Source: Nanobdellota archaeon (lineage in GTDB: Archaea; Nanobdellota; Nanobdellia; Pacearchaeales; GW2011-AR1). From it: 64,000 bases of DNA. Below, piece after piece: positions 2,281 through 32,741 of this stretch. The DNA lies in NCBI GenBank assembly GCA_038046245.1, contig JBBSWO010000003.1:13879-77878 (forward strand), read 5' to 3'. Below the pieces are notes generated by a model. That model worked only from the letters and a program-made list of their open reading frames with translations. It did no database searches and was not told where the DNA came from. The position numbers and the translations under genes were made by a program. Position 1 is the first letter of the stretch; the number at the start of each line of letters is the position of its first letter.

Positions 2281-3471
2281 ATGCTAAAGAGGCCTATAGC
2301 TTTTGGAAAAAGAGAGCCGATAAAAAAATTAGGTTTCGTGATTTTTATTTTGACTATAGCGTTTGCTTTGACAAGCAGCGTCATGGCTTTGTACATAAAT
2401 TCGTTTTTACACAGTGAAGCAAAAGTCGGGCTGACATTTTCTTTTTTGATAGTGGTATCTTTTCTCTCTTTCTTTTTGATAATTCCTATTATTGAATCTT
2501 CCGACAAATATAGCTTGACGATAAAATCATTAATATTTTCAGTTGTTGGTTATTTCTTATATTACTTCATAGGAAATTTTTATTTATTTTTGGCTTTGGC
2601 AGCTATAATCTCTGTAATATCCACAGTAAGAATATCCGCAATGGGTCTGCTAGTCAAGGAAAATTCCAAAAGAAAAACTCTCTCAAAAAATGAAGGCTAC
2701 ATCTACTCTCTTTCAAACCTATCTTTCACAATAGGTTCCCTGCTGATTATCCCCCTGATCTTTTATCTTGGCCTAAGATCTGTTTTCCTTGCAGCTTCTT
2801 TAGTAATACTTATCTCAATGTTGTTGATTCATTTTTTAAAAATTAATCATGGCGGAAGAAAGAAAAGAGTTGATGGGAACGTTTTCAAAAATTTCGTCGC
2901 TTTTTTCAAGGATAAGGCAAGAGTTAAGTCATATCTTTTAAGGGCGGGTGTAACATTTTGGTGGTCATTGTCTTATGTCTATCTTCCTTTGCTCATAATA
3001 AAAAAGCTTCCAGAATTTTGGGTGGGAGTGTTTTTGGCTGCAATAACAATTCCTTTGATATTTTTAGAATATCCATTCGGAAAAATGGCCGGAAGACTAG
3101 GCTACAAGAAATTTTTCTTTTTAGGATTTTTAATCCCAGCAATAATGTCTCTGCTTTGCTTTATCTTTTACCAGAACATATTCTTCATAATGGGCGCAAT
3201 CACTTTAGCAAGCGTAGGCCTTGCTATGTTGGAACCAAACACAGAATCATATTTCTTTGATATTGTCAAAGGAAAAGAGCATCTTAGGTTTTATTCAGCT
3301 CACAACACTTCCCTAGAAATAGGCCATCTTGCCGGTCAATTCATTCCGGCTCTTGTCCTGTTGCTTCTCCCTCTTAAGTTCGTTTTCCTTGTTTTTGGAA
3401 TCGGAACATTGCTGCTTTCTTTCCTGGCATTAAGTATAAAAAATATAAAAGAATCAAGAAGAAAATCCTAA
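2281..3471 (+). CDS. multi-pass membrane transporter, MFS-like
   Basis: 396 aa with about 10-12 hydrophobic helices in two halves separated by a basic loop (HGGRKKRVDG). This is MFS-like topology; the family was not verified. Confidence 0.5.
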   Translation: MLKRPIAFGKREPIKKLGFVIFILTIAFALTSSVMALYINSFLHSEAKVGLTFSFLIVVSFLSFFLIIPIIESSDKYSLTIKSLIFSVVGYFLYYFIGNFYLFLALAAIISVISTVRISAMGLLVKENSKRKTLSKNEGYIYSLSNLSFTIGSLLIIPLIFYLGLRSVFLAASLVILISMLLIHFLKINHGGRKKRVDGNVFKNFVAFFKDKARVKSYLLRAGVTFWWSLSYVYLPLLIIKKLPEFWVGVFLAAITIPLIFLEYPFGKMAGRLGYKKFFFLGFLIPAIMSLLCFIFYQNIFFIMGAITLASVGLAMLEPNTESYFFDIVKGKEHLRFYSAHNTSLEIGHLAGQFIPALVLLLLPLKFVFLVFGIGTLLLSFLALSIKNIKESRRKS

Positions 3472-3481
3472 CTATTAATAA

Positions 3482-3682
3482 TTAGAATTTCTTATGTTTT
3501 TGGTAACAATCTTTGCAATAAACTGGTTTTCCTTCTGTTGGTTTGAAAGGAACTTCACAATCTTGCTTACATTCAGAGCAGACAGCTTTGTGCATTTCTC
3601 TTGGGCCAAAACTTCCGCCGAATCCGCCACTTCTGCTACCGCCGCCGAATCTTCCCTTACTTCGATTATCGAATCTATCCAT
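3482..3682 (-). CDS. small zinc-ribbon protein, CxxC-x17-CxxC type with an RGG-rich N-terminus
   Basis: CSECKQDCEVPFKPTEGKPVYCKDC gives two CxxC pairs 17 residues apart. It is preceded by a GRFGGGSRSGGFGGSFG tract. Confidence 0.7.
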   Translation of the reverse strand: MDRFDNRSKGRFGGGSRSGGFGGSFGPREMHKAVCSECKQDCEVPFKPTEGKPVYCKDCYQKHKKF

Positions 3683-20123: not shown

Positions 20124-22313
20124 TTACTGATTTTCACTCAAGCCCTTTCTAGTTCTTATCTTCCTTATTACATCGTCCTGCAAAGAGGCCGGTGTTTTCT
20201 CGAAGAACTGATCAGATAAAGATGAAACTCCTCTTCCCTCTGTTGCAGATCTCAAATCAGAACTCCATCCAAGCATTTCAGCGACGGGAAGTTTTGCTTC
20301 GATTGTGACTCCAGCATCGTCCTGCTTCACATCTAAAAGCTGTCCTCTTTTGCTGGATATTAACTTATTTACCTCTCCTAAAAATGAAGTTGGCGCTTCT
20401 ATTATGTGGACTTGAATAGGCTCAAACATTGACGGTGAAGCTTCTTTCATTGCTTCTTTGATTGACTCTCTTACAGCAGGATAAACCTGTGCAGGACCCC
20501 TGTGGATCGCGTCCTCGTGTAGTTTTATATCTGCCAAAGAAATTTTCATCTTCATACAAGGCTCTCTTGCCAAAGGCCCTTGGTCTATCACCATTTCAAA
20601 TGCGTCCAAAACCATTTCTATTACTTCACCAAGATGGACTTCTCCTCTCGTTTCATCAACCAACATGTTTCCTTTGTAAATATCTCTGACGCCTCTTATT
20701 GAATCTCCATCCCATCCTATTTTTGAAAGCACATCAAAGACTTCCTGGCTTTTCTTTTTTATTCTTCCTTCTCTTAATTCTCCATTCCTTATCGCCTGAT
20801 AAACATCATCTTCTAATGGCTCAACTTTCATGAAGAAACTATTGTGTTTGTTAGGACTTCTTCCCTCAACAGCGTCGGATTTTTTTAAAACTGTTTCTCT
20901 GTAAACAATAATTGGCGAGGAAGTTTTTATTGAAAGCCCCTTTTCAGTCCTTATCCTGTTTTCAATAATCTCTAAATGCAATTCTCCCATTCCAGACATA
21001 AGATTTTCTCCAGTCTGCTCGTTGATTTCAATTTTTATTGATGGATCTTCCTTTCCAACTTTTTTCAATATTTCAACAAGCTTTGGAAGATCAGCTGTTT
21101 TCTCAACTTCAATGGCTTTGGTAATAACTGGCTCAAAAATATGTTTCAATTCTTCAAATGGAGTTTCTGGTTCAAGTGTGATGGTCTCTCCAGCTTCGCC
21201 TGCAATTCCTGATATGGCCAAAACATTTCCTGCAACGATTTCGTCAATTTGTTCAGGCTTTATCCCATTATAGACAAACAGCTGCTGTATTTTCTGTCTT
21301 TGTTTCGCGAGATTAAGATAAACTTCTGTTCCAGACTTTAGCGTCCCTGAAAAAAGTCTTCCAGCAGAAATTTCTTTTCCAGACCTTGGCTCAATAACAA
21401 TTCTTGTAATGACAAAAGCGATTTCTCCTTTTGGATTACAATCCTTCAAATCTTTTCCGAAAGTGGTTTCAGAGTCCCCATGCCATATTTTTGGAATTCT
21501 GTATTTTTGGGCCTCTACAGGGTTTGGAAGATGCTTTACTACCATGTCCAAAAGAACCTCATAAAGAGGTGCGTTCTTCCAACACCACTCTTTTCTATCT
21601 TCTTCAGTCATTTCATAAAGTGCTAAAATATCTTTGAAATTAATTCCTTTTTTCTGCATGAATGGAACAGACATCGCCCAGTTTTCTCTTGCCGATCCGA
21701 ACGCAACACTTCCATCTTTTATGTCAACAGCCCAACTTTCTTTAAATTCACCTTCAGCAACTTTTCTTATCAATTCGTTGAATTCGTGGAAAATTTCAAC
21801 AAATCTTTGCTGCATTTGCTCCGGAGTCAACTTTAATTCTTTTATTAATCTGTCAACTTTGTTTATGAACAAGACCGGCCTCACTCTTTCCCTCAATGCT
21901 TGTTTGACCACTGTTTCTGTTTGGGGCATTATTCCTTCAACAGCGCAGACAAGAACAATAGTTCCGTCAATTGCTCTCATGGCTCTTGTAACATTTCCAG
22001 AGAAATCAACGTGTCCGGGGGTGTCAATTAAATTAATTAAATATTCTTCCCCATGATAGTCGTGGACCATTGAAACATTTGCAGCGTCAACAGTCATAAG
22101 CCTTTCCTGCTCGTCAGAGTGCTGCCATGTTGCCATTCCTGCCTCAAGATCTCCTGCAGATTTTGAAGCCATGTAACCTGATGCGGCAAGAAGATTGTCT
22201 GTCAAAGCAGTTTTACCATGGTGAATGTGTGCAGATGTTGCAATATTCCTAATATTCTTTTGATACTTGTTGATTCTCTTTATCTTGTCAAATTGTGATT
22301 CTTTGTCTGCCAT
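20124..22313 (-). CDS. fusA: translation elongation factor EF-2
   Basis: AHIHHGKTALTDNLL and DTPGHVDF GTPase blocks. The diphthamide-loop motif HEDAIHRGPAQ is diagnostic of archaeal/eukaryotic EF-2. Confidence 0.95.
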   Translation of the reverse strand: MADKESQFDKIKRINKYQKNIRNIATSAHIHHGKTALTDNLLAASGYMASKSAGDLEAGMATWQHSDEQERLMTVDAANVSMVHDYHGEEYLINLIDTPGHVDFSGNVTRAMRAIDGTIVLVCAVEGIMPQTETVVKQALRERVRPVLFINKVDRLIKELKLTPEQMQQRFVEIFHEFNELIRKVAEGEFKESWAVDIKDGSVAFGSARENWAMSVPFMQKKGINFKDILALYEMTEEDRKEWCWKNAPLYEVLLDMVVKHLPNPVEAQKYRIPKIWHGDSETTFGKDLKDCNPKGEIAFVITRIVIEPRSGKEISAGRLFSGTLKSGTEVYLNLAKQRQKIQQLFVYNGIKPEQIDEIVAGNVLAISGIAGEAGETITLEPETPFEELKHIFEPVITKAIEVEKTADLPKLVEILKKVGKEDPSIKIEINEQTGENLMSGMGELHLEIIENRIRTEKGLSIKTSSPIIVYRETVLKKSDAVEGRSPNKHNSFFMKVEPLEDDVYQAIRNGELREGRIKKKSQEVFDVLSKIGWDGDSIRGVRDIYKGNMLVDETRGEVHLGEVIEMVLDAFEMVIDQGPLAREPCMKMKISLADIKLHEDAIHRGPAQVYPAVRESIKEAMKEASPSMFEPIQVHIIEAPTSFLGEVNKLISSKRGQLLDVKQDDAGVTIEAKLPVAEMLGWSSDLRSATEGRGVSSLSDQFFEKTPASLQDDVIRKIRTRKGLSENQ

Positions 22314-22382: not shown

Positions 22383-22865
22383 TTAAGTACGTTTGTATCT
22401 TAATTCAAAATTATCAGGCAAATTACTTTGTATCTTTGCCATAGAATCCCCATTAGCCCCATAATCATCTACATTAACAACTCTACCTACAAGATCTATA
22501 TCAACTGACATTCCTCTTGAACCGTGAAGATTGCTTAGTCTTATATGCTCAATTTTTAATGTTTTTTTACCTTGCCAGGGTAGAGGAACTATTAGATTAA
22601 GATTTTCATTCTTCTCAGTCTCAGAACTAAACCATTCAGAGTACAGTCTTAAAACTTCTTTTTTTTTGCAGTATGACTCTCCTTTGATAGGTGTAGTTGC
22701 TAAGCTAACAGGCTCCTGAACAACTTGTCTGATCTGTTGAGCCAGATTATCAATGCCAAAATAATCAAAACCAGAATCTCTATCTATTGAAAATTCAACT
22801 TGTGCCTTTTCAATTGGGATAACTTTTAATATTTTTTCTAAATCAGGAAGTTTTATTGCATCCAT
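22383..22865 (-). CDS. hypothetical protein (160 aa)
   Basis: ATG ORF without a competing frame; no family recognised. Confidence 0.4.
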   Translation of the reverse strand: MDAIKLPDLEKILKVIPIEKAQVEFSIDRDSGFDYFGIDNLAQQIRQVVQEPVSLATTPIKGESYCKKKEVLRLYSEWFSSETEKNENLNLIVPLPWQGKKTLKIEHIRLSNLHGSRGMSVDIDLVGRVVNVDDYGANGDSMAKIQSNLPDNFELRYKRT

Positions 22866-22984: not shown

Positions 22985-23407
22985 ATGGAAGGAGTTAACA
23001 TATCTGGAATTTATCCTGCAGACTTAAATGACCCAAGAGGTATGACCTATGAATGGTGCAAGGGAATTCTAGGGCTTCAACTAACAGTGTTTGAGAGAAA
23101 AAAAGGTACAGTTTTCGGAGGCCATTATCATAAAGGATTAGACCCTTCAAAAAATCCTGAAAGATTATTTTTAATAAAAGGGCAGCTTAAACTTTTAGCA
23201 CACAACGGAATGATTGACTCGAGTCTGGAAGAGACAGTGAATGAGGGTGAAGAACTTTTAATTTTTCCAGGAATAATCCACAGCTTTCATTCATTGACAG
23301 ACATAATTATTTTAGAATACAGATCAACAATATTTGATAGAAATAATTCAGATACTTTTTCCCCTGAAACATACCAAACTTATATTGATTCAATGAAAAA
23401 ATTATAA
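22985..23407 (+). CDS. cupin-fold protein (sugar epimerase/WxcM-like)
   Basis: GGHYHKG ... LIFPGIIHSF fits the cupin two-motif pattern; 140 aa. Confidence 0.5.
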   Translation: MEGVNISGIYPADLNDPRGMTYEWCKGILGLQLTVFERKKGTVFGGHYHKGLDPSKNPERLFLIKGQLKLLAHNGMIDSSLEETVNEGEELLIFPGIIHSFHSLTDIIILEYRSTIFDRNNSDTFSPETYQTYIDSMKKL

Positions 23408-23408
23408 T

Positions 23409-24020
23409 TTACCTTGCAGAATCAGCCTGCGCTTCAGCTTCCTTTTTCTTCCTGACAGCAAAACTATCTCCGTTGTTGTCTGCGGCAAGCATTATTTCTT
23501 CAGACAAGCCCTGGACAATATTTTTCTTTTTTCCGAAAGCCTTATCTGATGCCCCGTGAACAATATGTTTTACTGCAAGGTTGACCCTTCTCAAAGGTGA
23601 GACATCAACAGCCTGAGGATATCTTGCTCCACCATATTCTATGACGGTGATTTCATCTCTAGGTGCAGAATTTTCTATAGCCTTTATTAAAACTTGAACC
23701 GGGTTCTTTCCAGTCTTTTCAGCAACTATTCTCAATGCGTCTAAAACAATACTCATGTTTTTCGTATATTTCCCGCTTGATCTTCCGAACATTATCCTGT
23801 GTTTCTTACCTCTGTGTCCTGCGACAGCAAGTTTATTCATTAGCCTTTCAACAATATTCACTTTTAACTGGCCCATTTTTTGCACGTTTCTTCCATAACT
23901 TTTTAGAATTAATTTTGGTTCAAGATTTATCACGTCTTTTAGTCCTGGATCTTCAACAACAATTTCTTGAATATCGTAAAGATCGAATATCTTGAAGACT
24001 GGAAGTTTATTGTGTGTCAT
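23409..24020 (-). CDS. rps7: 30S ribosomal protein S7 (uS7)
   Basis: Archaeal uS7 pattern (KLAVAGHRGKKHR ... ALRIVAEKTGKNPVQVLIKAIENSAPRDE ... GARYPQAVDVSPLRR) and its position in the str cluster. Confidence 0.9.
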   Translation of the reverse strand: MTHNKLPVFKIFDLYDIQEIVVEDPGLKDVINLEPKLILKSYGRNVQKMGQLKVNIVERLMNKLAVAGHRGKKHRIMFGRSSGKYTKNMSIVLDALRIVAEKTGKNPVQVLIKAIENSAPRDEITVIEYGGARYPQAVDVSPLRRVNLAVKHIVHGASDKAFGKKKNIVQGLSEEIMLAADNNGDSFAVRKKKEAEAQADSAR

Positions 24021-24184
24021 TTTTTTACCTCTCTATATTCTAAAAACACTCCACCACTCGAAGTTGTTACAACATTTAATTCTTTTCCCACCAACGTTGG
24101 AATTAATTTTCTGACTAATCCTTTTCCTAACTGAACTGTTCCAACCGTTTCATATTTTGTCTGATTATAATTATTCTCTGCCAT
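24017..24184 (-). CDS. small ORF (55 aa) between rps12 and rps7, weakly AbrB/SpoVT-like
   Basis: ATG at 24184, one nt after the upstream stop (TAAAATG). Its stop overlaps the rps7 start (ATGA). VQLGKGLVRKLIPTLVGKELNVVTTSSGGVFLE loosely resembles a swapped-hairpin motif. Confidence 0.45.
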   Translation of the reverse strand: MAENNYNQTKYETVGTVQLGKGLVRKLIPTLVGKELNVVTTSSGGVFLEYREVKK

Positions 24185-24185
24185 T

Positions 24186-24428
24186 TTAATCGAAAACTCC
24201 TTCTTCCACATGCAAGGGCGTAACAACAAGAGCCAATCCCTTTTTATTCCTTCTTTTGTTTTCTCTTTGTTCTACTGTTGCATTGTTGAATTGAGAAGGA
24301 TGGTAATTTTTACCCCTTATTCTAACATCATCAACGGCCAGGTGTTTTATTCCTCCGTGAACCGTTTGATTATTGACATATAATACCTCTTTAGGAACTA
24401 CGTCGTGTAGATAAAATTCTCTTGCCAT
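24186..24428 (-). CDS. small ORF (80 aa) between rps12 and rps7, unknown function
   Basis: It starts one nt after the rps12 stop codon (24430-24432) and fills the whole interval; no family recognised. Confidence 0.5.
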   Translation of the reverse strand: MAREFYLHDVVPKEVLYVNNQTVHGGIKHLAVDDVRIRGKNYHPSQFNNATVEQRENKRRNKKGLALVVTPLHVEEGVFD

Positions 24429-24429
24429 C

Positions 24430-24852
24430 TTATCTTCTACCCTTTTCTATTTTGCCTTGCACTAAAAGATGCAGAGGCTGATCATTTACTTGAATTACTT
24501 GGAATCTGACTCCAGGAATATCTCCTTTACTTCTCCCCTGTTTTCCACCGATTCTTTCTATAAGAACTTCATCGTGTTCATCAATGAATTTTTGTGCCAA
24601 ATTGCCCGGAATAAAAGCGGTCACGGATTTTCCATTCTTTTTAAGCTGGACCTTGCAGCATTTTCTCATTGCTGAGTTTGGCTGCTTCGCTTCTTTTTGA
24701 ATCTTTGAGAGAACAATTCCTCTTGCTTGATTCGCTCCTTCCAACGGATCTGATTTTGCATAAAGATTTAGAGTCCTAGATATGTAGTGTCTATCACTCC
24801 ATCTGAATCTTTTCCTGTCCTTTACTTTCTTTTTTGCAGCTTTTAATGACAT
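24430..24852 (-). CDS. rps12: 30S ribosomal protein S12 (uS12)
   Basis: [28 protein letters not shown] and GVRFQV blocks are typical of archaeal uS12. Confidence 0.9.
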
Positions 24853-24909: not shown

Positions 24910-25326
24910 TCACTGTATCCTAAACTCTTTGCCGAAAAAATCTTTTATGATTTTTTGCATTTCTAGAAGTCTTCTTTTGTTTCTTCCTATAAGCGCGGCT
25001 TTGTTCTGCGAGCTTGCGTTTAGCACAATTTCTCCTTCGTTTATGCTTAGATCCTTGAATGTTATTGGGTCAACAATATTTTGCACGAATTGTTTTGCAT
25101 ATTCAATCCCCTCAGGCATTGGAATAACTCTTATTCTTCTTCCGAGGATTTCGCTAAGCCTTCTTATATTTCTGGCCTTTTCCCCCAAAGCTCTTGCAAT
25201 AAGGGGTCTTGGAACACAGTAAAAAATTGTCTCATTATACCTAAAACAAAAATTAGTCCTTATTCTTGTGACTTTCTCAAACAAATTGAGATGTCTCATG
25301 ATCTGCATGTCAATAGTTGTATCCAT
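24910..25326 (-). CDS. nusA: archaeal NusA-like KH-domain transcription factor
   Basis: ~140 aa two-KH-domain pattern (LFEKVT...CF....IFYCVPRPLIARALGEKARNIRRLSEILGRRIRVI). Canonical position between rpoA and rps12. Confidence 0.8.
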   Translation of the reverse strand: MDTTIDMQIMRHLNLFEKVTRIRTNFCFRYNETIFYCVPRPLIARALGEKARNIRRLSEILGRRIRVIPMPEGIEYAKQFVQNIVDPITFKDLSINEGEIVLNASSQNKAALIGRNKRRLLEMQKIIKDFFGKEFRIQ

Positions 25327-25393: not shown

Positions 25394-28300
25394 TTACTTA
25401 TTTGCTCTATCAACAACTTCACTCTTTGCAGTCTTTAACTCTGACTCTTTTTTCTTCAAAGGCCCGACAACTTGCACAAGAAGTCCTGGTAATCCAGTCC
25501 CGACGGGAACAGGTTGATTCAAGATTATGTTTTCTATTACGCTTGTTAATTTATCCTTGCTTCCCTTTATTGTTGCATTGACAAATTGTTTTACAGGAGT
25601 TTCGAATGTCGCCCTTGCCAAAATAGAAGCTTTCTGTGCTATGATACCAATTCTTGTGACTCCTTTAACATCTCCAGTATTGGTCATCGCATCTGCAACA
25701 AGTTTCAAATGTCTTTCATCAATATCAAGCCCCTGAGGTTTTATGACTGCCCTGATTTCTTCAATAATCAATTGTCTTGCAACTTCGATTCCGAAAACTT
25801 CTGCAACTTCGTGAAGATCGTTTGAAATTGTCTTGTGAGGATTTATTTCTTTGAACAATAAAACTTTCTTCAGATTAGTCCCAAGTGTGACAATGACATA
25901 ATCTCCATCTCTCTTTACAATCAAAACTTGCCTGACCCCTTTTATTCCAGAGATGACTGTATCCTTTATTTTTTCCTTAAGATTGTAAATTTCTTTGAAT
26001 CCCTGATCTTCTAAACTCAAAGATATAGCGTCTCCCTTATCTTTAACTTTGAATCCAAGCTCGTTTAATCTTGACACAACGCTTCCAACAGACATATGGA
26101 CTTTTCTTAATCCTTCCTTATCAATTTTTATTTCAACTTTTTTGTCAGTAAAATCAAGATTGACTTCAGAGGCTATCTCTTTCATAGTGACTTCTTTAAT
26201 TTTCTCAGCAAGAACCTTGGCGTCTTTCTCATTGTTATACTCTTTTTTCAGATATATCTCCATCTTTGGTGAAGAAGGTTTTTTTCTTGCGTCAAATATT
26301 TCGATAAGTCTTGGCAGACCTTGTGTAACCTGCATTTCAGAGACTCCAGCATAGTGGAATGTTCTCAATACCATCTGCGTTGATGGCTCTCCGAATGATT
26401 GTGCAGTTACAATTCCTATTGCTTCCCCAGGTTCAAGTTGCTCTTTGGTGTATTGTTTTGCGACGTCGATTCCGTCGTCTCCGTAAATGAACTGTATTAT
26501 GTTATTATTGCTGTCTCTTATTGTTCCATCGTATTCCTTTCTCAGGTCTTGCAAAGCATTTGCCAATCTTCTATACAAATAACCGGATTTAGGAGTTCTC
26601 AGGGCAGTATCCATAAGTGTTGCTCTTCCTGTTATTGCTCCAAAGAAAAATTCGCTGGGCCTTAAGCCCTTAATGAATGAACTTGCAATAAACCCTCTTG
26701 ATTGAGGAGAAAGATCTCCTTTCTTGAAGAAAGATAAAGTTCTTCCAGTGTAACCGATGTCAATTCTTTTCCCTTCCAAGTCCTGTTGTCCAACGCAACA
26801 AGCCATCTGTGTTATGTTAAGTATGTTTCCGCCACCACCACTTCTTATCATGTATGTAACTGGGTTTTCTTCAGGGAACTGATCTTTTATCAGCTCTCCA
26901 ATCTTTGTTCTTACTTCATTCAATGTTCTAAGTATTTTTATCTCTCTTGATTCCTCTATACTTTTTCCAGGAAGCATCTCAAGTGTTCCGTTAGTGCATT
27001 CATCTATTATTTCATAAGATTTCTTTTCAGCTCTTTCTATAATCCTCTTAGACTCTTCAGATATTTTTTCATCGACGTCAAAATCCTCCAATGCAATTGT
27101 GATGCCCTTATCATTCAAATAGTTCTTTCCAAGATTGAATGCTTTTTTTATTGTCTCAAAAGTTTCGTATCTTCCGAATTTTCTGTCAAGCTCTCTTATC
27201 AACTCTCCATCTTCTTGTCCGAATAATGTTTTATCAATTATCCCTTTTATCACTTCTCCATCTTTTATCGTAATGGATTTGTTTGAAAAGGTGACTTTTG
27301 GAAGTATGTTCGAGAAGATTTCTAAACCAGAAATTGTTTTCTTGGAGAAAATGTTGTCTATTCCGGATTGATAAAACAGCTGATTGACATATTCTTTTGA
27401 AAAGTTTTCCAGGCCTAAAAGATAATTTCCAGTTATTGAATCGGCTATACATCCTATCTGATTCGTTCCATTCTTTGAAGAAATCAAATTTTCTTTTACA
27501 TCTAAAAGCACTTTTGCTTCTGCTCTTGCTTCCTCTGTCTGAGGCGAGTGTATGTTCATCTCATCTCCATCAAAATCCGCGTTATAAGGGGCAGCGACTG
27601 CAGGATGAAGCCTGAAAGTCCTGCCTGGCAAGACTCTTACATAATGCGCCATCAAACTTCCCTTGTGCAAACTTGGGTGTCTGTTGAATAGAACAATATC
27701 CCCATTTCTCAAATGTCTCTCGACTTTATATCCTGGTGACAATTCACTTATTATTTCATCTTTTAGATCTGCGGTTATTTTTTTTCTCTTTCCATCAGGT
27801 CTTATAACATAATTTGCTCCAGGGTATTCTTCACCCATTTTTATTAATCCTTTCATGTTTTCAAAATTAAGATCATTAACAGTTTCTGCAACTGTGACTA
27901 CCCTTGCAATTTCATATGGAATTCCGACTTCATTAATTTGGATTGATGGGTCAGGAGAAATGACTGTCCTTCCAGAATAGTTTACTCTTTTACCGGCAAG
28001 ATTCTTTCTTATTCTCCCCTCTTTACCTTTGATTCTTTCAGAAATTGTTTTTAATGGTTGACCGCTTCTGTGTCTTGCAGGAGGGATTCTTGCAACAGTG
28101 TTATCAAAGAAAGTTGTTACATGGAACTGCAATAAATCCCATAAATCTTCTATGATCACTTCGGGTGCTCCGGCGTTTAAGTTTTCCCATAATCTTTGAT
28201 TTGCTCTTATGATATCAGAAAGTTTATGTGTTAAATCATCTTCACTTCTTTCTCCAGTTTCAAGAATGATACTTGGTCTAACAGTTACTGGGGGGACTAA

Positions 28301-28882
28301 AAGTCCAGTTAAAACTCCCCACTCAGGTCTGCATGAACTTGGTTCAACTCCAATTTTTCTTAATTCAGCATCGGGAATATTGGAAAGAATTTCTCTTATT
28401 TCTGTTGGGAACATTCTTGATTTTCCTTTGTAAAAAGTTGTTGGTTTTTCAAGTTTAACTTTTTCATTAGGCGTTTGACAATGGGGGCACTTCTTGACGT
28501 CTTTTGCTTTTTTTACTCTTTGGCTTGGAGGATATTTTGTAAGGTCCTTGTCTTCAAGCATTAATTTTCCACAAGATTTGCAGAAACATCTTAATCCCAT
28601 TTCTATCAAAGGAACATAATTAAGGTGGATGACCGATCTTGCAAGGTCAATACTTCCAGGATGTCCTAAACATTCTTTTATTCTCCCGCCACAAGTTCTA
28701 CACCTTACTCCAGGATCAATTGCCCCGAGTCTTAAATCCATCAAACCACCATCAACTGGATAGCCGTCAATGTCATAAAGTTCTGGTGTTACAATCTTTG
28801 CGGCAGACAATTTTTTAATCTGCTCCGGGTTGAATAAGTTAAATCTTATTTCTCCGATTTTTTTTCTTAATTGTGTTTTCAT
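25394..28882 (-). CDS. rpoA: DNA-directed RNA polymerase largest subunit, unsplit (A' and A'' parts in one ORF)
   Basis: N-terminal zinc motifs (CRTCGG, CKSCG, CPHC) and the catalytic [10 protein letters not shown]. The A''-type block [17 protein letters not shown] follows in the same frame with no stop. The A'/A'' junction equivalent is near nt 26440. Start [14 protein letters not shown] at 28882. Confidence 0.9.
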   Translation of the reverse strand: [1162 protein letters not shown]

Positions 28883-28883
28883 T

Positions 28884-29144
28884 TTATTTATTTCCGAAAT
28901 TATAATCCTGGACTGTTTGATCCATTGGATTAGGATAATTTGAATGTGGTGGAACATTTACTCCTTCTGTTGATGCTGGAAAGTCTACTCCAGATGTTCT
29001 TACAAAGTGTGAAGGTAGCTGAGATTCAAGAGAGTCTCGTCTTCCAATTAGTGCTCTTGCTGTGATTCGAGGTGAATCAAGATCGCCTTCTCCAAGAGGC
29101 TCAAATCCATTCATATAGTGTTCATTTAATCTGTCTATTGTCAT
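28884..29144 (-). CDS. uncharacterised 86-aa ORF between rpoB and rpoA
   Basis: It starts 5 nt after the rpoB stop and ends 1 nt before the rpoA ATG, filling the whole interval; no family recognised. Confidence 0.55.
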   Translation of the reverse strand: MTIDRLNEHYMNGFEPLGEGDLDSPRITARALIGRRDSLESQLPSHFVRTSGVDFPASTEGVNVPPHSNYPNPMDQTVQDYNFGNK

Positions 29145-29149
29145 TTTAT

Positions 29150-32100
29150 TTATTCATACTTATTCTTTAATCCAAATGTTGTGTGAATGTGCAGTCCTTG
29201 CAATTCTTCAACTAGCAATTTAAATGCATATGAAATTTCAACAAATTCTACTTTTTCGCTGCCGCATATGGGGCATGAAACTTTCTTTCTTATGTTGTCG
29301 TCAACCGCCGTAGCTCCGCATTTAACACATATCGGTAAAACAACTTTGTCAGAGCTATATCTTTCTTTTAACAATAAAGCTGCTCCATGTGCAACTAAAA
29401 CCTGTTGCTCCATTTCTCCAAGTCTCAATGCTCCGCCTCTTGCTCTTCCCTCTACCGGCTGTCTTGTAAGCAATGCGATCTTTCCAGAAGCTCTTCCGTG
29501 AAGCTTGTTTCCGACCATGTATTTTAATTTCAAGTAATAAAGATTTCCTACAAATATCTTAGATTCTATTTTTCTTCCAGTGACTCCATTGTACATTATT
29601 TCTTTTCCGTCATACCTGAATCCCAGCGCCTTAAGCTGCTCTTCAAGTTCTTTTTTGCTTTCACCAGCAAAGCAAGTTCCGTCGATAACTTTTCCCCTCA
29701 AACATCCAACTTTTCCAGCAAGCAATTCCAAAAGATAACCTACAGTCATTCTAGATGGAAGTCCGTGAGGGTTGAACATTACATCTGGTCTGACTCCTCT
29801 TGCTGTGAATGGAACATCTTCTTCTGGGACTATCAATCCAAGAACTCCTTTCTGTCCGTGTGAAGTTGCAAATTTGTCCCCAACCTCTGGAATCCTTTGG
29901 TCCCTTGTTTTTACCTGTGCGATTTTGTTTCCTTCATTATCTTCGGTAATAAAAACAGACTCGACAGTTCCGTGCTCTTCCTGCCTCATCGTTACGCTTG
30001 ATTCTTTCTTTGTTCTGACGGAAATCTCTCTGGCCTCAGACAAGAACTTTGGCGGAGAAACTTTTCCTATCAAAACATCCCCTTCAGAGACTTCAGCTTC
30101 AGGGTATGTTATTCCGTCATCGTCTAAAAGTCTGTAACTTGTTTCTGTTCTGTATCCTGAAGAATCTTTTTCTGGAATTCCAACTTCATCACTTAATCCT
30201 CCAGCGTAATGCATTTCAACAGCCGAATAGGGTCTGTAATAGAAGCTTCTTCCAACTCCTCTGTCAACACTTCCCTTGTTGAACACGAGTGCATCTTCCA
30301 TATTGTATCCTTCATGGGTCATTATTGCAACAACAAGATTTTGTCCTGCAGGATAAATATTCAAAGTGTCATAGACGAAACTTTTTACAATCGGCTTTTG
30401 GGGATATTGCAAAATACTTACATCAGTGTCGATCCTGCACAAATAATTTGCAGCGTAAATTCCCAAAGCCTGCTTTTGAGTTTTACTTCCTCTGTTCAAT
30501 CTCGAGCTCTGGTCGTGATTACCATAAGGAACAAGACTTGTAACAACCCCAAACAAATCTAAAGGATCAATTTCAAGATGAGTATGTTCTGAAGTTATTT
30601 CTTCTTCATAAAGTGCAACCAATGAGTTTTCCTCTTCTGAAGCGTCTAAATACTCAATGATCCCATTTTCAGTCAAATACTGCCAATTAATTTCATCTTG
30701 TTCTAATCTTACAATGTGTTCGTTTTTCAGTCTTGAAGAACCATTGTCGACAATTATTAAAGGTCTCAAAACTCTTCCTGCTTCAGTGGATATCAAAACA
30801 GTCTGGAATTTGTCATTATCTCTCACATTGAGCTGGATGGGAAGCTGATTGTTTCTTCTTTTTTCTCTTATCTTGGTTACAAAATCTTTTGGATTTTCAA
30901 TAGTACCAATGAACATTCCGTTTAAAAAAACATCAGTCTCTTTTCTATTATTATTTTCATCTTCTTCTGTTCTTAATCCGAAATTTTGGAGGTCTTTTGT
31001 GAATTTTTCTTCGTCAAGCTCGATTCTCGTCGATACTCTGCTCAATATTGCAAGATTTTTTCTCAAACCGATTTCTGTTCCTTCAGGAGTTTCTATTGGA
31101 CAGAATCTTCCATAATGGGTTGGATGCAAAGTTCTTGCCTTGAAATTTTCTTGATCACTTGAAAGCATACTCGAAACTCTCTGAAGCTGTGAGATTGTTG
31201 CAAGATAGTTTGTCTTATCCATGTTCTGGGTTATTCCAGACCTCTCTCCTGTCCAGCTTCCTGTCGCAATTGCAGATTCAACCCTGTGTGAAAATAATGT
31301 GGACTTGGCGATTATCTTTATAGAAAAGAATTTTTTTCTTTTTGAAGATTTTTGCAGGGAATACTGTATGTCCCTAATCAAAATTCCCAAATTTACTCTG
31401 AATAAAGTTGCCAAAAGGTCTCCAGAAAGCCTTACTCTCTTGTTTGCATAATGGTCTTTGTCTGTTCTTAATTCTGGATTTTCCTTGGAAAGCAAAAACT
31501 GCTTTATTAATTTACAAAGTGTGACTGCTTTTTTTATTCTGTCTTCCTTCTTTTGTCCGATGTGGGGAAATAAGTATGAATCAATCCTTTGTTTTACTCT
31601 GTCAAGAATTTCTTTTTTTGTCCCCTGCAGACTTGTTTTTTCGGCAATAAACATCATGGCATCTTCTTTTGTTGCGATGTTGACGAATTCATACAGGTTA
31701 ACAATAACACTATCTGTTTCTTTCTTTATGTATTTGGCTATGTCTGATTCTTTTGTCAACCCTAAGGCTTTAAGCAGAACGATTGCAGGAATATTTTTGA
31801 ATTTGCCGAATGAGACTTCGAAAAGTCCTTTTTTGTCTTCAGTGATAGTTGTGGGGATTCTGTAAGTTCCCTTTAATGAGAAAAGCTTCAAAACTAAATT
31901 TCCTCTTGAGTCTGTTTCAACAAAAGGTTGGTTCTCGGCAAGGTCTTCAGCCATGACCATCACTCTTTCATTTCCTTTTATCAAGAAATATCCGCCCGGG
32001 TCTAAAGGGTCGACATAATTTGAAATCATGTCCTCTTTTCCCATACCCCATGTGTTGCATATCTTACTTCTTACCATGACTGGAATCTTTCCTATTTCAA

Positions 32101-32485
32101 CTTCCTCAGAATCGACTTGTCCGTCTTTCTTTACAGTCATTTCTAAATGAATGGGGGCAGCGTATGTAAGATTTCTGATTCTTGCATCAGACGGCATTAT
32201 CATTGAAGAGCTTCCGTCAGCTTCGGTTATAATGGGCCTGCCGATTTTTATTTTTCCAAGAGTTATTTCAAAATCATTGTTTTCTATTGTTGAAGCAATT
32301 TCGTCAACAATCTCCTGCATTCTTTTTTCTATAAAATTATTGAAAGAAATTACATTTGACTCTACGAGTGAGTGCTTTTCAAGATATTTTTTTACAATTA
32401 AATGTTGTGTATCTTTAGGCATTTTGTTTTCCTTTATTCTTATCAAAATGACTTTTGCGGAATCTTTTGATTCCAGCTTAGGCAT
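29150..32485 (-). CDS. rpoB: DNA-directed RNA polymerase subunit B (unsplit)
   Basis: GDKFATSHGQKGV, the hybrid-binding blocks, and a C-terminal zinc ribbon CVKCG...CPICG. An alternative start at 32422 (MPKDTQHL) is possible. Confidence 0.95.
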   Translation of the reverse strand: MPKLESKDSAKVILIRIKENKMPKDTQHLIVKKYLEKHSLVESNVISFNNFIEKRMQEIVDEIASTIENNDFEITLGKIKIGRPIITEADGSSSMIMPSDARIRNLTYAAPIHLEMTVKKDGQVDSEEVEIGKIPVMVRSKICNTWGMGKEDMISNYVDPLDPGGYFLIKGNERVMVMAEDLAENQPFVETDSRGNLVLKLFSLKGTYRIPTTITEDKKGLFEVSFGKFKNIPAIVLLKALGLTKESDIAKYIKKETDSVIVNLYEFVNIATKEDAMMFIAEKTSLQGTKKEILDRVKQRIDSYLFPHIGQKKEDRIKKAVTLCKLIKQFLLSKENPELRTDKDHYANKRVRLSGDLLATLFRVNLGILIRDIQYSLQKSSKRKKFFSIKIIAKSTLFSHRVESAIATGSWTGERSGITQNMDKTNYLATISQLQRVSSMLSSDQENFKARTLHPTHYGRFCPIETPEGTEIGLRKNLAILSRVSTRIELDEEKFTKDLQNFGLRTEEDENNNRKETDVFLNGMFIGTIENPKDFVTKIREKRRNNQLPIQLNVRDNDKFQTVLISTEAGRVLRPLIIVDNGSSRLKNEHIVRLEQDEINWQYLTENGIIEYLDASEEENSLVALYEEEITSEHTHLEIDPLDLFGVVTSLVPYGNHDQSSRLNRGSKTQKQALGIYAANYLCRIDTDVSILQYPQKPIVKSFVYDTLNIYPAGQNLVVAIMTHEGYNMEDALVFNKGSVDRGVGRSFYYRPYSAVEMHYAGGLSDEVGIPEKDSSGYRTETSYRLLDDDGITYPEAEVSEGDVLIGKVSPPKFLSEAREISVRTKKESSVTMRQEEHGTVESVFITEDNEGNKIAQVKTRDQRIPEVGDKFATSHGQKGVLGLIVPEEDVPFTARGVRPDVMFNPHGLPSRMTVGYLLELLAGKVGCLRGKVIDGTCFAGESKKELEEQLKALGFRYDGKEIMYNGVTGRKIESKIFVGNLYYLKLKYMVGNKLHGRASGKIALLTRQPVEGRARGGALRLGEMEQQVLVAHGAALLLKERYSSDKVVLPICVKCGATAVDDNIRKKVSCPICGSEKVEFVEISYAFKLLVEELQGLHIHTTFGLKNKYE

Positions 32486-32531: not shown

Positions 32532-32741
32532 CTAAACAACAACTCTGTAATATGACACAGTTTTGTCTTCGAATTTTCTTTCAATCTCTATTACGTCTCC
32601 GATTTGGCAGCCTTCTGGCAAACTTGGATCAGTTAAAAGTATTTTTGGGAGTTGTGCTTTAGAAACATTCAATTTTATAGTAATCTCTGAGACTTCTTTT
32701 TCAGATAATTTCACGTGTTTTGGTTGTAGAATATGTGACAT
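32532..32741 (-). CDS. rpoH: DNA-directed RNA polymerase subunit H (Rpb5-like)
   Basis: HILQPKHVKLSEKE...LPKILLTDP...GDVIEIER...YYRVV matches the RpoH/Rpb5 C-terminal domain pattern. It lies directly upstream of rpoB. Confidence 0.85.
   Translation of the reverse strand: MSHILQPKHVKLSEKEVSEITIKLNVSKAQLPKILLTDPSLPEGCQIGDVIEIERKFEDKTVSYYRVVV

Follow-up and report, generated by a model that had tools for sequence, protein, structure and literature searches.

Experiments in Haloferax and Escherichia coli have demonstrated that the coupling of translation between neighbouring genes by termination and reinitiation requires that the genes overlap or lie a very short distance apart, and that a distance of about 20 nucleotides (nt) nearly abolishes it (Huber et al. 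2019, PMC6728339; Huber et al. 2023, PMC10666635). Among gene pairs that lie close together, those coding for subunits of heteromeric complexes are overrepresented (PMC10666635). We investigated an arrangement that resembles such termination-reinitiation pairs of archaea and bacteria in a 64,000-nt stretch of DNA from a Nanobdellota archaeon (contig JBBSWO010000003.1, positions 13,879 to 77,878), which is referred to as the window. In the window, an open reading frame (ORF) of 86 codons, ORF86, lies between rpoB and rpoA, the genes for the two large subunits of RNA polymerase. As in the described pairs, stops and starts overlap or are a few nucleotides apart (TAA-5 nt-ATG and TAA-1 nt-ATG in the window; ATGA, TAA-N-ATG and 8-nt overlaps in its relatives), Shine-Dalgarno sequences are lacking, and the operon encodes the subunits of a complex. 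Unlike in those pairs, two predicted couplings are chained through an inserted, hypervariable ORF that belongs to no family. On balance, we read ORF86 as a real, presumably translated gene that is evolutionarily young, dispensable and an orphan, and that sits in a recurrent insertion slot between the rpoB stop and the rpoA start of Pacearchaeota/Woesearchaeota (DPANN archaea).

Other described systems share part of these features. Morons and gene cassettes at a fixed site likewise combine a fixed position, variable and unrelated small genes, empty and occupied states and short direct repeats at the borders. Morons usually carry their own promoter and terminator, whereas the ORF86 insert lacks such signals, its start and stop being supplied by a duplicated junction, and no recombinase or attachment-site structure was identified for it. 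Natural rpoB-rpoC fusions in Helicobacter and Wolbachia also contain extra sequence between the second-largest and the largest subunit genes, but as an in-frame linker within one polypeptide; here, the stops and a frame shift of +1 at both borders of ORF86 lead us to expect three separate products. Orphan or de novo small genes and the small Cys-rich (zinc-finger-like) micro-proteins of archaea are short, taxonomically restricted and fast-evolving, and a third of the slot occupants contain at least four Cys; however, ORF86 has none, and the Cys spacing in the slot differs from the classic CPxCG/CxxC pair pattern. Rpo13 and Rpo8/RpoG, which are polymerase-associated archaeal proteins, resemble ORF86 in being small and lineage-restricted, but ORF86 has no sequence match to them, is absent from the closest relative and has unrelated ORFs in its place elsewhere; the genes for Rpo13 and Rpo8 are not known to lie between rpoB and rpoA. 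Rpo13 is confined to some Thermoprotei (PMC13257274). The searchable literature contained no description of ORFs between archaeal rpoB and rpoA and, to our knowledge, the slot pattern has so far not been described. The novelty lies in the place: an orphan small gene and a variable-gene slot, both of known kinds, at an unexpected and highly conserved junction.

The genes of the polymerase operon, with product lengths in amino acids (aa), are as follows.

32532..32741, minus strand: rpoH, the first gene of the operon (Pfam RNA_pol_Rpb5_C, E = 3e-15)
29150..32485, minus strand: rpoB, unsplit RNA polymerase subunit B, 1111 aa (Pfam Rpb2 domains 1-7 on the identical product)
28884..29144, minus strand: ORF86, orphan gene for an 86-aa protein, with a coding signature and without homologue or family
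25394..28882, minus strand: rpoA, A' and A'' fused, 1162 aa (Pfam Rpb1 domains 1-5; start position kept in relatives)

An earlier note on this DNA had given the positions of the rpoB stop, ORF86 and the rpoA start, all of which were confirmed on the sequence. The rpoB stop codon is at 29150-29152, after a product ending in ...GLKNKYE. The ORF86 ATG (29144) lies 5 nt past it, and the rpoA ATG (28882) lies 1 nt past the ORF86 stop at 28884-28886 (TAAAATG), opening a product that begins M-K-T-Q-L-R-K-K-I-G (MKTQLRKKIGEIRF...). The two junctions read ...TAT GAA TAA ataaa ATG ACA... and ...AAT AAA TAA a ATG AAA..., and ORF86 fills 98% of the 267-nt gap between rpoB and rpoA. With the RpoB C-terminus, 38 related loci were fetched from species-representative genomes and 46 from metagenomes; they are metagenome-assembled genomes (MAGs) of Pacearchaeota/Woesearchaeota/Nanoarchaeota with an RpoB C-terminal identity of 55-97% and are numbered with the prefix L. 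The RpoB C-terminus (..KNKYE and stop) and the RpoA N-terminus (M-x3-4-[IL]RKKIG) agree with those of 78 related loci, indicating that both neighbours are complete and that ORF86 is no detached piece of either, as the note had held. The canonical order with separate A' and A'' genes that it cited does not apply, as rpoA in this lineage is one fused gene.

By its composition, ORF86 is protein-coding. A codon model was trained on the window's 31 ORFs of at least 200 aa, and ORF86 scored 0.24 per codon in frame, with 86-codon windows of real genes averaging 0.256 (standard deviation 0.083); the remaining five frames all scored negative. Only 0.25% of the shuffles of its own nucleotides were stop-free, and 1,015 stop-free shuffles scored -0.04 ± 0.07 with a maximum of 0.156, none attaining the score of ORF86. 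Natural stop-free stretches in a wrong frame (n = 218) reached at most 0.217, which is also below it. GC content at codon positions 1/2/3 was 0.56/0.42/0.17, a strong three-base periodicity. A long rpoA start at 28957, which the earlier note had weighed as the competing frame, found no support: the extension is present in no relative, and over the 75 shared nt its frame scored -0.09 per codon versus +0.17 for that of ORF86. A structured noncoding RNA was rejected, since an Rfam scan of the region returned nothing at E <= 1 and its folding stability equalled that of shuffles (z-score -0.12).

The N-terminal half of the ORF86 protein is acidic and the C-terminal half is rich in Pro, Asn, Ser and Gly; there is no Cys and a single Lys. 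Across about 15 billion proteins, no homologue besides ORF86 itself was found. Pfam and NCBIfam profile searches returned no family at E <= 10, so that a match to known archaeal polymerase subunits (Rpo8/G, Rpo13, Rpo10/N, Rpo12/P, Rpo6/K, Rpo5/H and others) or transcription factors, a comparison of the kind that the note had proposed, was lacking at that threshold. The best match among PDB sequences was a viral capsid protein at E = 0.17, and the viral database IMG/VR gave none. A word-indexed search of 5.8 billion clusters recovered only ORF86 itself, and an exhaustive HMMER scan of 1.84 billion representatives recovered itself and three long repeat proteins, which were dismissed as artefacts because their score stems from one short stretch matched 6-17 times. 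That ORF86 falls in no recognizable family, as the note had remarked, was therefore borne out in Pfam, NCBIfam, PDB, Rfam and viral searches. The identical protein occurs on 12 contigs, nine of which were retrieved (Hainich groundwater 0.1-um assemblies, sequencing-run assemblies and one NCBI MAG); these match the window at 99.93-100% identity and hence belong to a single population, without variation that could inform the ratio of nonsynonymous to synonymous substitution rates (dN/dS). A single-sequence AlphaFold2 model of ORF86 was of low confidence (predicted local distance difference test (pLDDT) 54, predicted template modelling score (pTM) 0.15) and contained a few short helices, and the peptide is probably largely disordered.

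ORF86 is bordered on both sides by a direct repeat.

29141..29154, minus strand: left copy of the 14-nt direct repeat AATAAATAAAATGA, containing the rpoB TAA stop, the 5-nt spacer and the ORF86 ATG
28879..28892, minus strand: right copy of the same repeat, containing the last two codons of ORF86, TAA, the 1-nt spacer and the rpoA ATG
28893..29140, minus strand: unique segment of 248 nt between the copies, without similarity in the window or in 84 related loci

The 14-mer is present in exactly two copies in the 64 kb, where none is expected, and can be extended to 17 nt (left copy 29138-29154) with one mismatch (16/17, 94%). The 248 nt between the copies and the A of ATGA together make 83 whole codons, so that the frame opened by the ATG of the left copy reaches the TAA inside the right copy. 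Since the left copy holds the ATG of ORF86 and the right copy its TAA, the start and the stop of the gene are both copies of the original junction. When the right copy is read in three frames, two stop just before the rpoA ATG and the third runs into rpoA, so any open insert remains chained to rpoA. A perfect 14-nt repeat at both borders is what a target-site duplication by a transposable element, or a miniature inverted-repeat transposable element (MITE), would leave; the insert has no terminal inverted repeats and no second copy in the window or in the 84 related loci. Neither blastn nor tblastx detected a donor or paralogue of the 248 bp in the same sequences. Derivation of ORF86 as a copy of the rpoA 5' end or the rpoB 3' end was rejected for lack of similarity.

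The closest sampled relative, L010 (= L048, from Hainich well H41), has RpoB and RpoA that are 96% identical to those of the window, at a synonymous divergence (dS) of about 1. Its rpoB-rpoA gap is 7 nt long (GAA TAA ataaaaa ATG) and contains no ORF, and this empty junction corresponds to one copy of the repeat (AATAAATAAAAAATG). The earlier note had set out beforehand that absence of the ORF from this junction in close relatives would refute its proposal of a polymerase subunit, and L010/L048 has nothing there but the 7 nt. ORF86 is therefore dispensable for an almost identical polymerase. The second-nearest relative, L044, is already at 82-84% RpoB/RpoA identity. Because the repeat is perfect and ORF86 is an orphan, we favour, on balance, a recent gain in the lineage of the window over a loss in L010, which seems rather unlikely.

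A similar structure was found at a second locus. The singleton slot ORF of L062/L063 (77 aa; rpoB stop at 2939) is also flanked by a 14-nt direct repeat, TACGAATAAAATGA, which spans the last two codons of rpoB, so the slot ORF ends in ..YYE and a stop like the ..KYE and stop of rpoB. The junction of L024, a close neighbour in the tree, is empty. The L062 ORF is an orphan too in the 5.8-billion-protein database, which left the idea that such inserts are captured fragments of a known gene without support. Of the repeat, the demonstrably old occupant of L054/L057, which is shared across a dS of about 0.7-0.9, keeps only an 8-9-nt core, and most other occupants keep the 7-nt core TAAAATG.

Occupation of the junction is common among the related genomes. 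Of 79 loci, 51 are occupied, which corresponds to 39 of 60 distinct junctions; their gaps measure 92-668 nt. In the crown clade around the window, the fraction is 25/30. The occupied loci nearly all carry one to three ORFs (31-122 aa) on the same strand as rpoB and rpoA, which together take up at least 90% of the gap. The slot ORFs start between -17 and +10 nt from the rpoB stop (-11 to +6 at nearly every locus), and the final one usually stops within about 4 nt of the rpoA ATG, with TAA-A-ATG, ATGA and 8-nt overlaps as typical junctions. In each of the 40 distinct gaps that measure 100 nt or more, a sense open frame exceeds the shuffle expectation in length (P <= 0.042 each); the sense frame is at least 90% open in 28 of them and the antisense frame in two. 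GC content at the first codon position (GC1) exceeds that at the third (GC3) in 40 of 41 occupants (mean GC1/2/3 0.40/0.33/0.21). As a control, the rpoH-rpoB junction was examined in the same genomes and is tight in 30 of 34. It is expanded in L020 (467 nt), L040 (178 nt) and L019 (97 nt).

GC3 in the 41 occupied loci is uniformly low in the slot ORFs (mean 0.21) and ranges from 0.11 to 0.50 in the flanking rpoB and rpoA, with a weak correlation between the two (r = 0.32, P = 0.04); in L025, the slot has a GC3 of 0.18 and the flanks 0.50. AT-biased mutation under relaxed selection could account for the low slot GC3, as could a foreign origin.

The occupants are diverse. Grouping of the 74 slot ORFs that are 30 aa or longer gave 51 clusters, and almost all multi-member clusters are the same genome sampled twice. 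Two orthologous pairs could be compared. The slot ORFs of L054 and L057 are 72% identical at dN/dS 0.28 (P = 1e-4 against neutrality), with RpoB/RpoA 96-98% identical, and those of L053 and L064 are 63% identical at dN/dS 0.32 (P = 7e-3), with RpoB 90% identical; the rpoB and rpoA flanking both pairs have dN/dS values of 0.02-0.07. These results indicate that slot ORFs can be inherited and that constraint on their proteins, though weak, is real, and they evolve roughly ten times faster than their neighbours. Comparison of ORF86 with about 50 slot ORFs of relatives by tblastn, phmmer and Smith-Waterman alignment with shuffled controls gave nothing significant, the best z being 2.8 in about 49 comparisons. 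No occupant reached the threshold of a curated family, 24 slot ORFs searched against Pfam and PHROGs giving only sub-threshold matches.

At least four Cys are present in 17 of 50 distinct occupants. Cys makes up 2.8% of residues in slot ORFs and 1.1% in the proteins of the window, and four or more Cys are expected by chance in 75 residues with a probability of about 0.01. A pattern C-[PE]-x(4-13)-C ... C ... C-x-Y, in a narrower form C-P-x(4-7)-C ... C ... C, recurs on deep and shallow branches. The Cys-rich ORFs and those with a second, weak motif, DP-x-TASEI, are located as follows.

Cys-rich slot ORFs, in the rpoB-rpoA gap: L011, L017, L022, L049, L052, L053/L064, L054/L057, L055 (two ORFs), L015/L056, L060, L076 and L078
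DP-x-TASEI motif ORFs: L019; the second ORF of L015/L056/L091; the L055 ORF at 3295-3543

With no Cys, ORF86 is outside the four-cysteine group, and its derivation from a frameshifted gene of this group was rejected, since the other frames of the insert do not encode the motif either. A profile built from 13 proteins of the group had six matches among 5.8 billion proteins, apparently query members or near-identical copies, ten Cys-rich slot ORFs had only sub-threshold Pfam matches, and AlphaFold2 on one Cys-rich slot protein with a six-sequence alignment gave a pLDDT of 39. The weak motif, [AS][RK]-x-D-P-x-[TQ]-A-[SA]-[EI], was seen in three lineages, each time in the ORF immediately preceding rpoA; L019 and the second ORF of L015 are reciprocal best hits (E = 0.02 in a database of about 115 sequences), and these ORFs may constitute a second recurrent slot family. 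A long hydrophobic stretch was noticed in the slot ORFs of L040 (..NVFNILFWILLAIGIGLLIWKIF..), L067/L088 and L060, the last (118 aa) having an N-terminal hydrophobic segment and 10 Cys. On inspection of their sequences, these are probably membrane proteins, and hydrophobic products are hard to reconcile with a polymerase-bound role.

ORF86 abuts both neighbours on the same strand at TAA-5 nt-ATG and then TAA-1 nt-ATG, which is the geometry that termination-reinitiation coupling requires and which the earlier note had correctly recognized as tight. Shine-Dalgarno-like 4-mers precede 11 of 64 predicted genes, versus 7.5% of random 20-mers, and none precedes ORF86 or rpoA. Many same-strand neighbours in the window overlap or sit 1-2 nt apart. 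The scarcity of Shine-Dalgarno-like motifs and the close spacing would fit a heavy reliance on coupling or on leaderless initiation. The ancestral rpoB/rpoA junction (TAAAATG, ATGA) is, to judge from its letters, of the coupled type.

We propose that a TAA-N-ATG junction like that of L010 received about 248 bp of coding DNA from a foreign source and that 14-17 bp of the junction were duplicated upon insertion. Ribosomes finishing rpoB would then reinitiate 5 nt downstream on ORF86, and those finishing ORF86 would reinitiate 1 nt downstream on rpoA, making ORF86 a translational relay created by a junction-duplicating insertion. A sizeable insertion would break coupling unless it were translated from the old start position to a stop beside the rpoA ATG. 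Since an untranslated gap of about 20 nt nearly abolishes coupling, only open inserts that abut both neighbours would survive, and such a coupling filter would account for the complete filling of every occupied junction by sense ORFs. The ORF86 peptide would ride on the expression of the polymerase operon and, rather than a stoichiometric polymerase subunit, would be no more than an accessory product.

A second chain of ORFs is present between rps12 and rps7, in the same operon as rpoB and rpoA.

24430-24852, minus strand: rps12
24186-24428, minus strand: ORF80, 80 aa, codon score 0.28 (gene-like)
ATG at 24184, stop at 24017-24019, minus strand: ORF55, 55 aa
23409-24020, minus strand: rps7

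The links of this chain are TAA-g-ATG after S12, then TAA-a-ATG and ATGA, and neither ORF80 nor ORF55 matched a Pfam family. Their starts have TAA.ATGGCA(A)GAGAAT in common, which may be the trace of another junction duplication. Given ORF80 and ORF55, the phenomenon of chained orphans is not specific to the polymerase. Other features of the operon were also recorded. The first ATG of rpoB (32485) puts 20 residues before the conserved start MPKDTQ... at the second ATG; the conserved N-terminus thus probably begins at about 32425, which would leave about 106 nt after rpoH. No L30e-like gene is present between rpoA and the next gene, a 138-aa gene (24910-25326) at the usual place of nusA that had no Pfam match at E <= 0.01. 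Between rps7 and a 729-aa gene (20124-22313), which we take to be EF-2, the content is non-canonical, with a 140-aa ORF on the plus strand (22985-23407) and a 160-aa ORF on the minus strand (22383-22865).

Several points weigh against ORF86 being a recent, dispensable insert. No donor of the 248 bp was found, though a recent in-frame gene fragment might be expected among the 1.84 billion representatives. The flanking repeat could in part owe its preservation to selection on the junction signal and not to a recent origin, the translation and coupling of ORF86 are themselves predictions, and both dN/dS estimates (L054/L057 and L053/L064) come from Cys-rich slot families and not from ORF86. With 25 of 30 crown-clade junctions occupied, parsimony alone favours an ancestral occupant and a loss in L010. 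The corresponding explanation is that ORF86 is a fast-diverged vertical descendant of an ancestral slot gene, possibly of the four-cysteine family, that has been at the junction since the base of the clade, and that L010 lost it by recombination between the flanking repeats, direct repeats being a natural substrate for precise deletion. Slot ORFs diverge so fast (72% identity where RpoB/RpoA are 96-98% identical, 63% where RpoB is 90%) that homology would be undetectable at the 82-84% RpoB/RpoA identity of L044; in addition, occupants near the window are similar in length (76-86 aa) and the Cys motif recurs on deep branches. We nevertheless consider this history rather unlikely. ORF86 has neither Cys nor significant similarity to the other slot ORFs, its repeat is perfect over 14 nt although only about 7-8 nt are functionally constrained and the old L054/L057 occupant keeps 8-9 nt, and occupants that range from 31 to 122 aa, number one to three per junction and include some probable membrane proteins fit turnover better.

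The earlier note had taken ORF86 for a lineage-specific accessory subunit or assembly factor of RNA polymerase, stoichiometric with the two large subunits. Its position in the core polymerase operon, tightly coupled to both neighbours, its real coding signature, the enrichment of closely spaced pairs for heteromeric-complex subunits (PMC10666635) and some purifying selection on other slot ORFs would all agree with such a role, but we judge it improbable: ORF86 is missing from L010 with its 96% identical polymerase, lacks homologues in all other genomes searched, matches no polymerase-subunit family and has a low-confidence structure prediction (pLDDT 54), while the slot occupants elsewhere are mutually unrelated, with probable membrane proteins among them, and equivalent orphan ORFs stand between the ribosomal protein genes rps12 and rps7. 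Polymerase binding by some occupants, for example the Cys-rich ones, is compatible with all of this evidence. An equally doubtful explanation is that ORF86 is the cargo of a small mobile cassette that uses the rpoB/rpoA junction as an attachment site of about 14 nt and carries selfish, defence or anti-defence functions; such cassettes would exploit strong constitutive expression and the difficulty of imprecise deletion. The flanking 14-nt direct repeats at two independent loci, the empty site with one repeat copy, the hypervariable content of the slot, the uniformly low occupant GC3 (about 0.2) that only weakly tracks host GC3 (r = 0.32), and an rpoB 3' end and junction conserved highly enough across lineages to be a possible target point this way. 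Terminal inverted repeats, a second copy in the window or related loci, an identical or near-identical cassette in two divergent hosts, an associated recombinase gene, a viral relative in IMG/VR and a convincing PHROG or Pfam signal were all lacking, however. That the region is no gene at all, but a chance-open spacer, an N-terminal extension of rpoA or a structured RNA, appears extremely improbable; homologues are absent, the structure prediction is of low confidence and the rpoA-frame ATG at 28957 is open through to 28882, but the gene-typical codon score lies above all stop-free controls, the GC values of the three codon positions show strong periodicity, the extension frame scores negative and is in no relative, and the region has no Rfam match and no excess folding stability. 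A bolder extension, which we regard as unlikely, is that the rpoB-rpoA junction, and perhaps also rps12-rps7, is a dedicated cassette site at which inserts arrive with a junction duplication of about 14 bp and are relay-translated. Its occupants, the four-cysteine proteins and orphans like ORF86, might then be fast-evolving modulators of polymerase or translation (e.g., in a virus-host or symbiont-host arms race), or the site might be a gene-birth nursery that forces captured DNA into translation.

The importance of the locus rests on the slot pattern, as ORF86 alone is an orphan. The rpoB/rpoA junction, which is among the most conserved gene junctions of archaea, is interrupted in about two thirds of the lineages of a large DPANN clade, and the interrupters are hypervariable, tightly chained, coding-like small ORFs. 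A practical warning follows: position in a core operon is no evidence of function in that machine. The slot provides a natural experiment on how translational coupling limits insertions into an essential operon, and it presents about 50 fast-evolving micro-proteins whose expression is necessarily tied to that of RNA polymerase, in unculturable organisms. In reduced genomes, it may also allow the birth of genes or the capture of cassettes to be observed.

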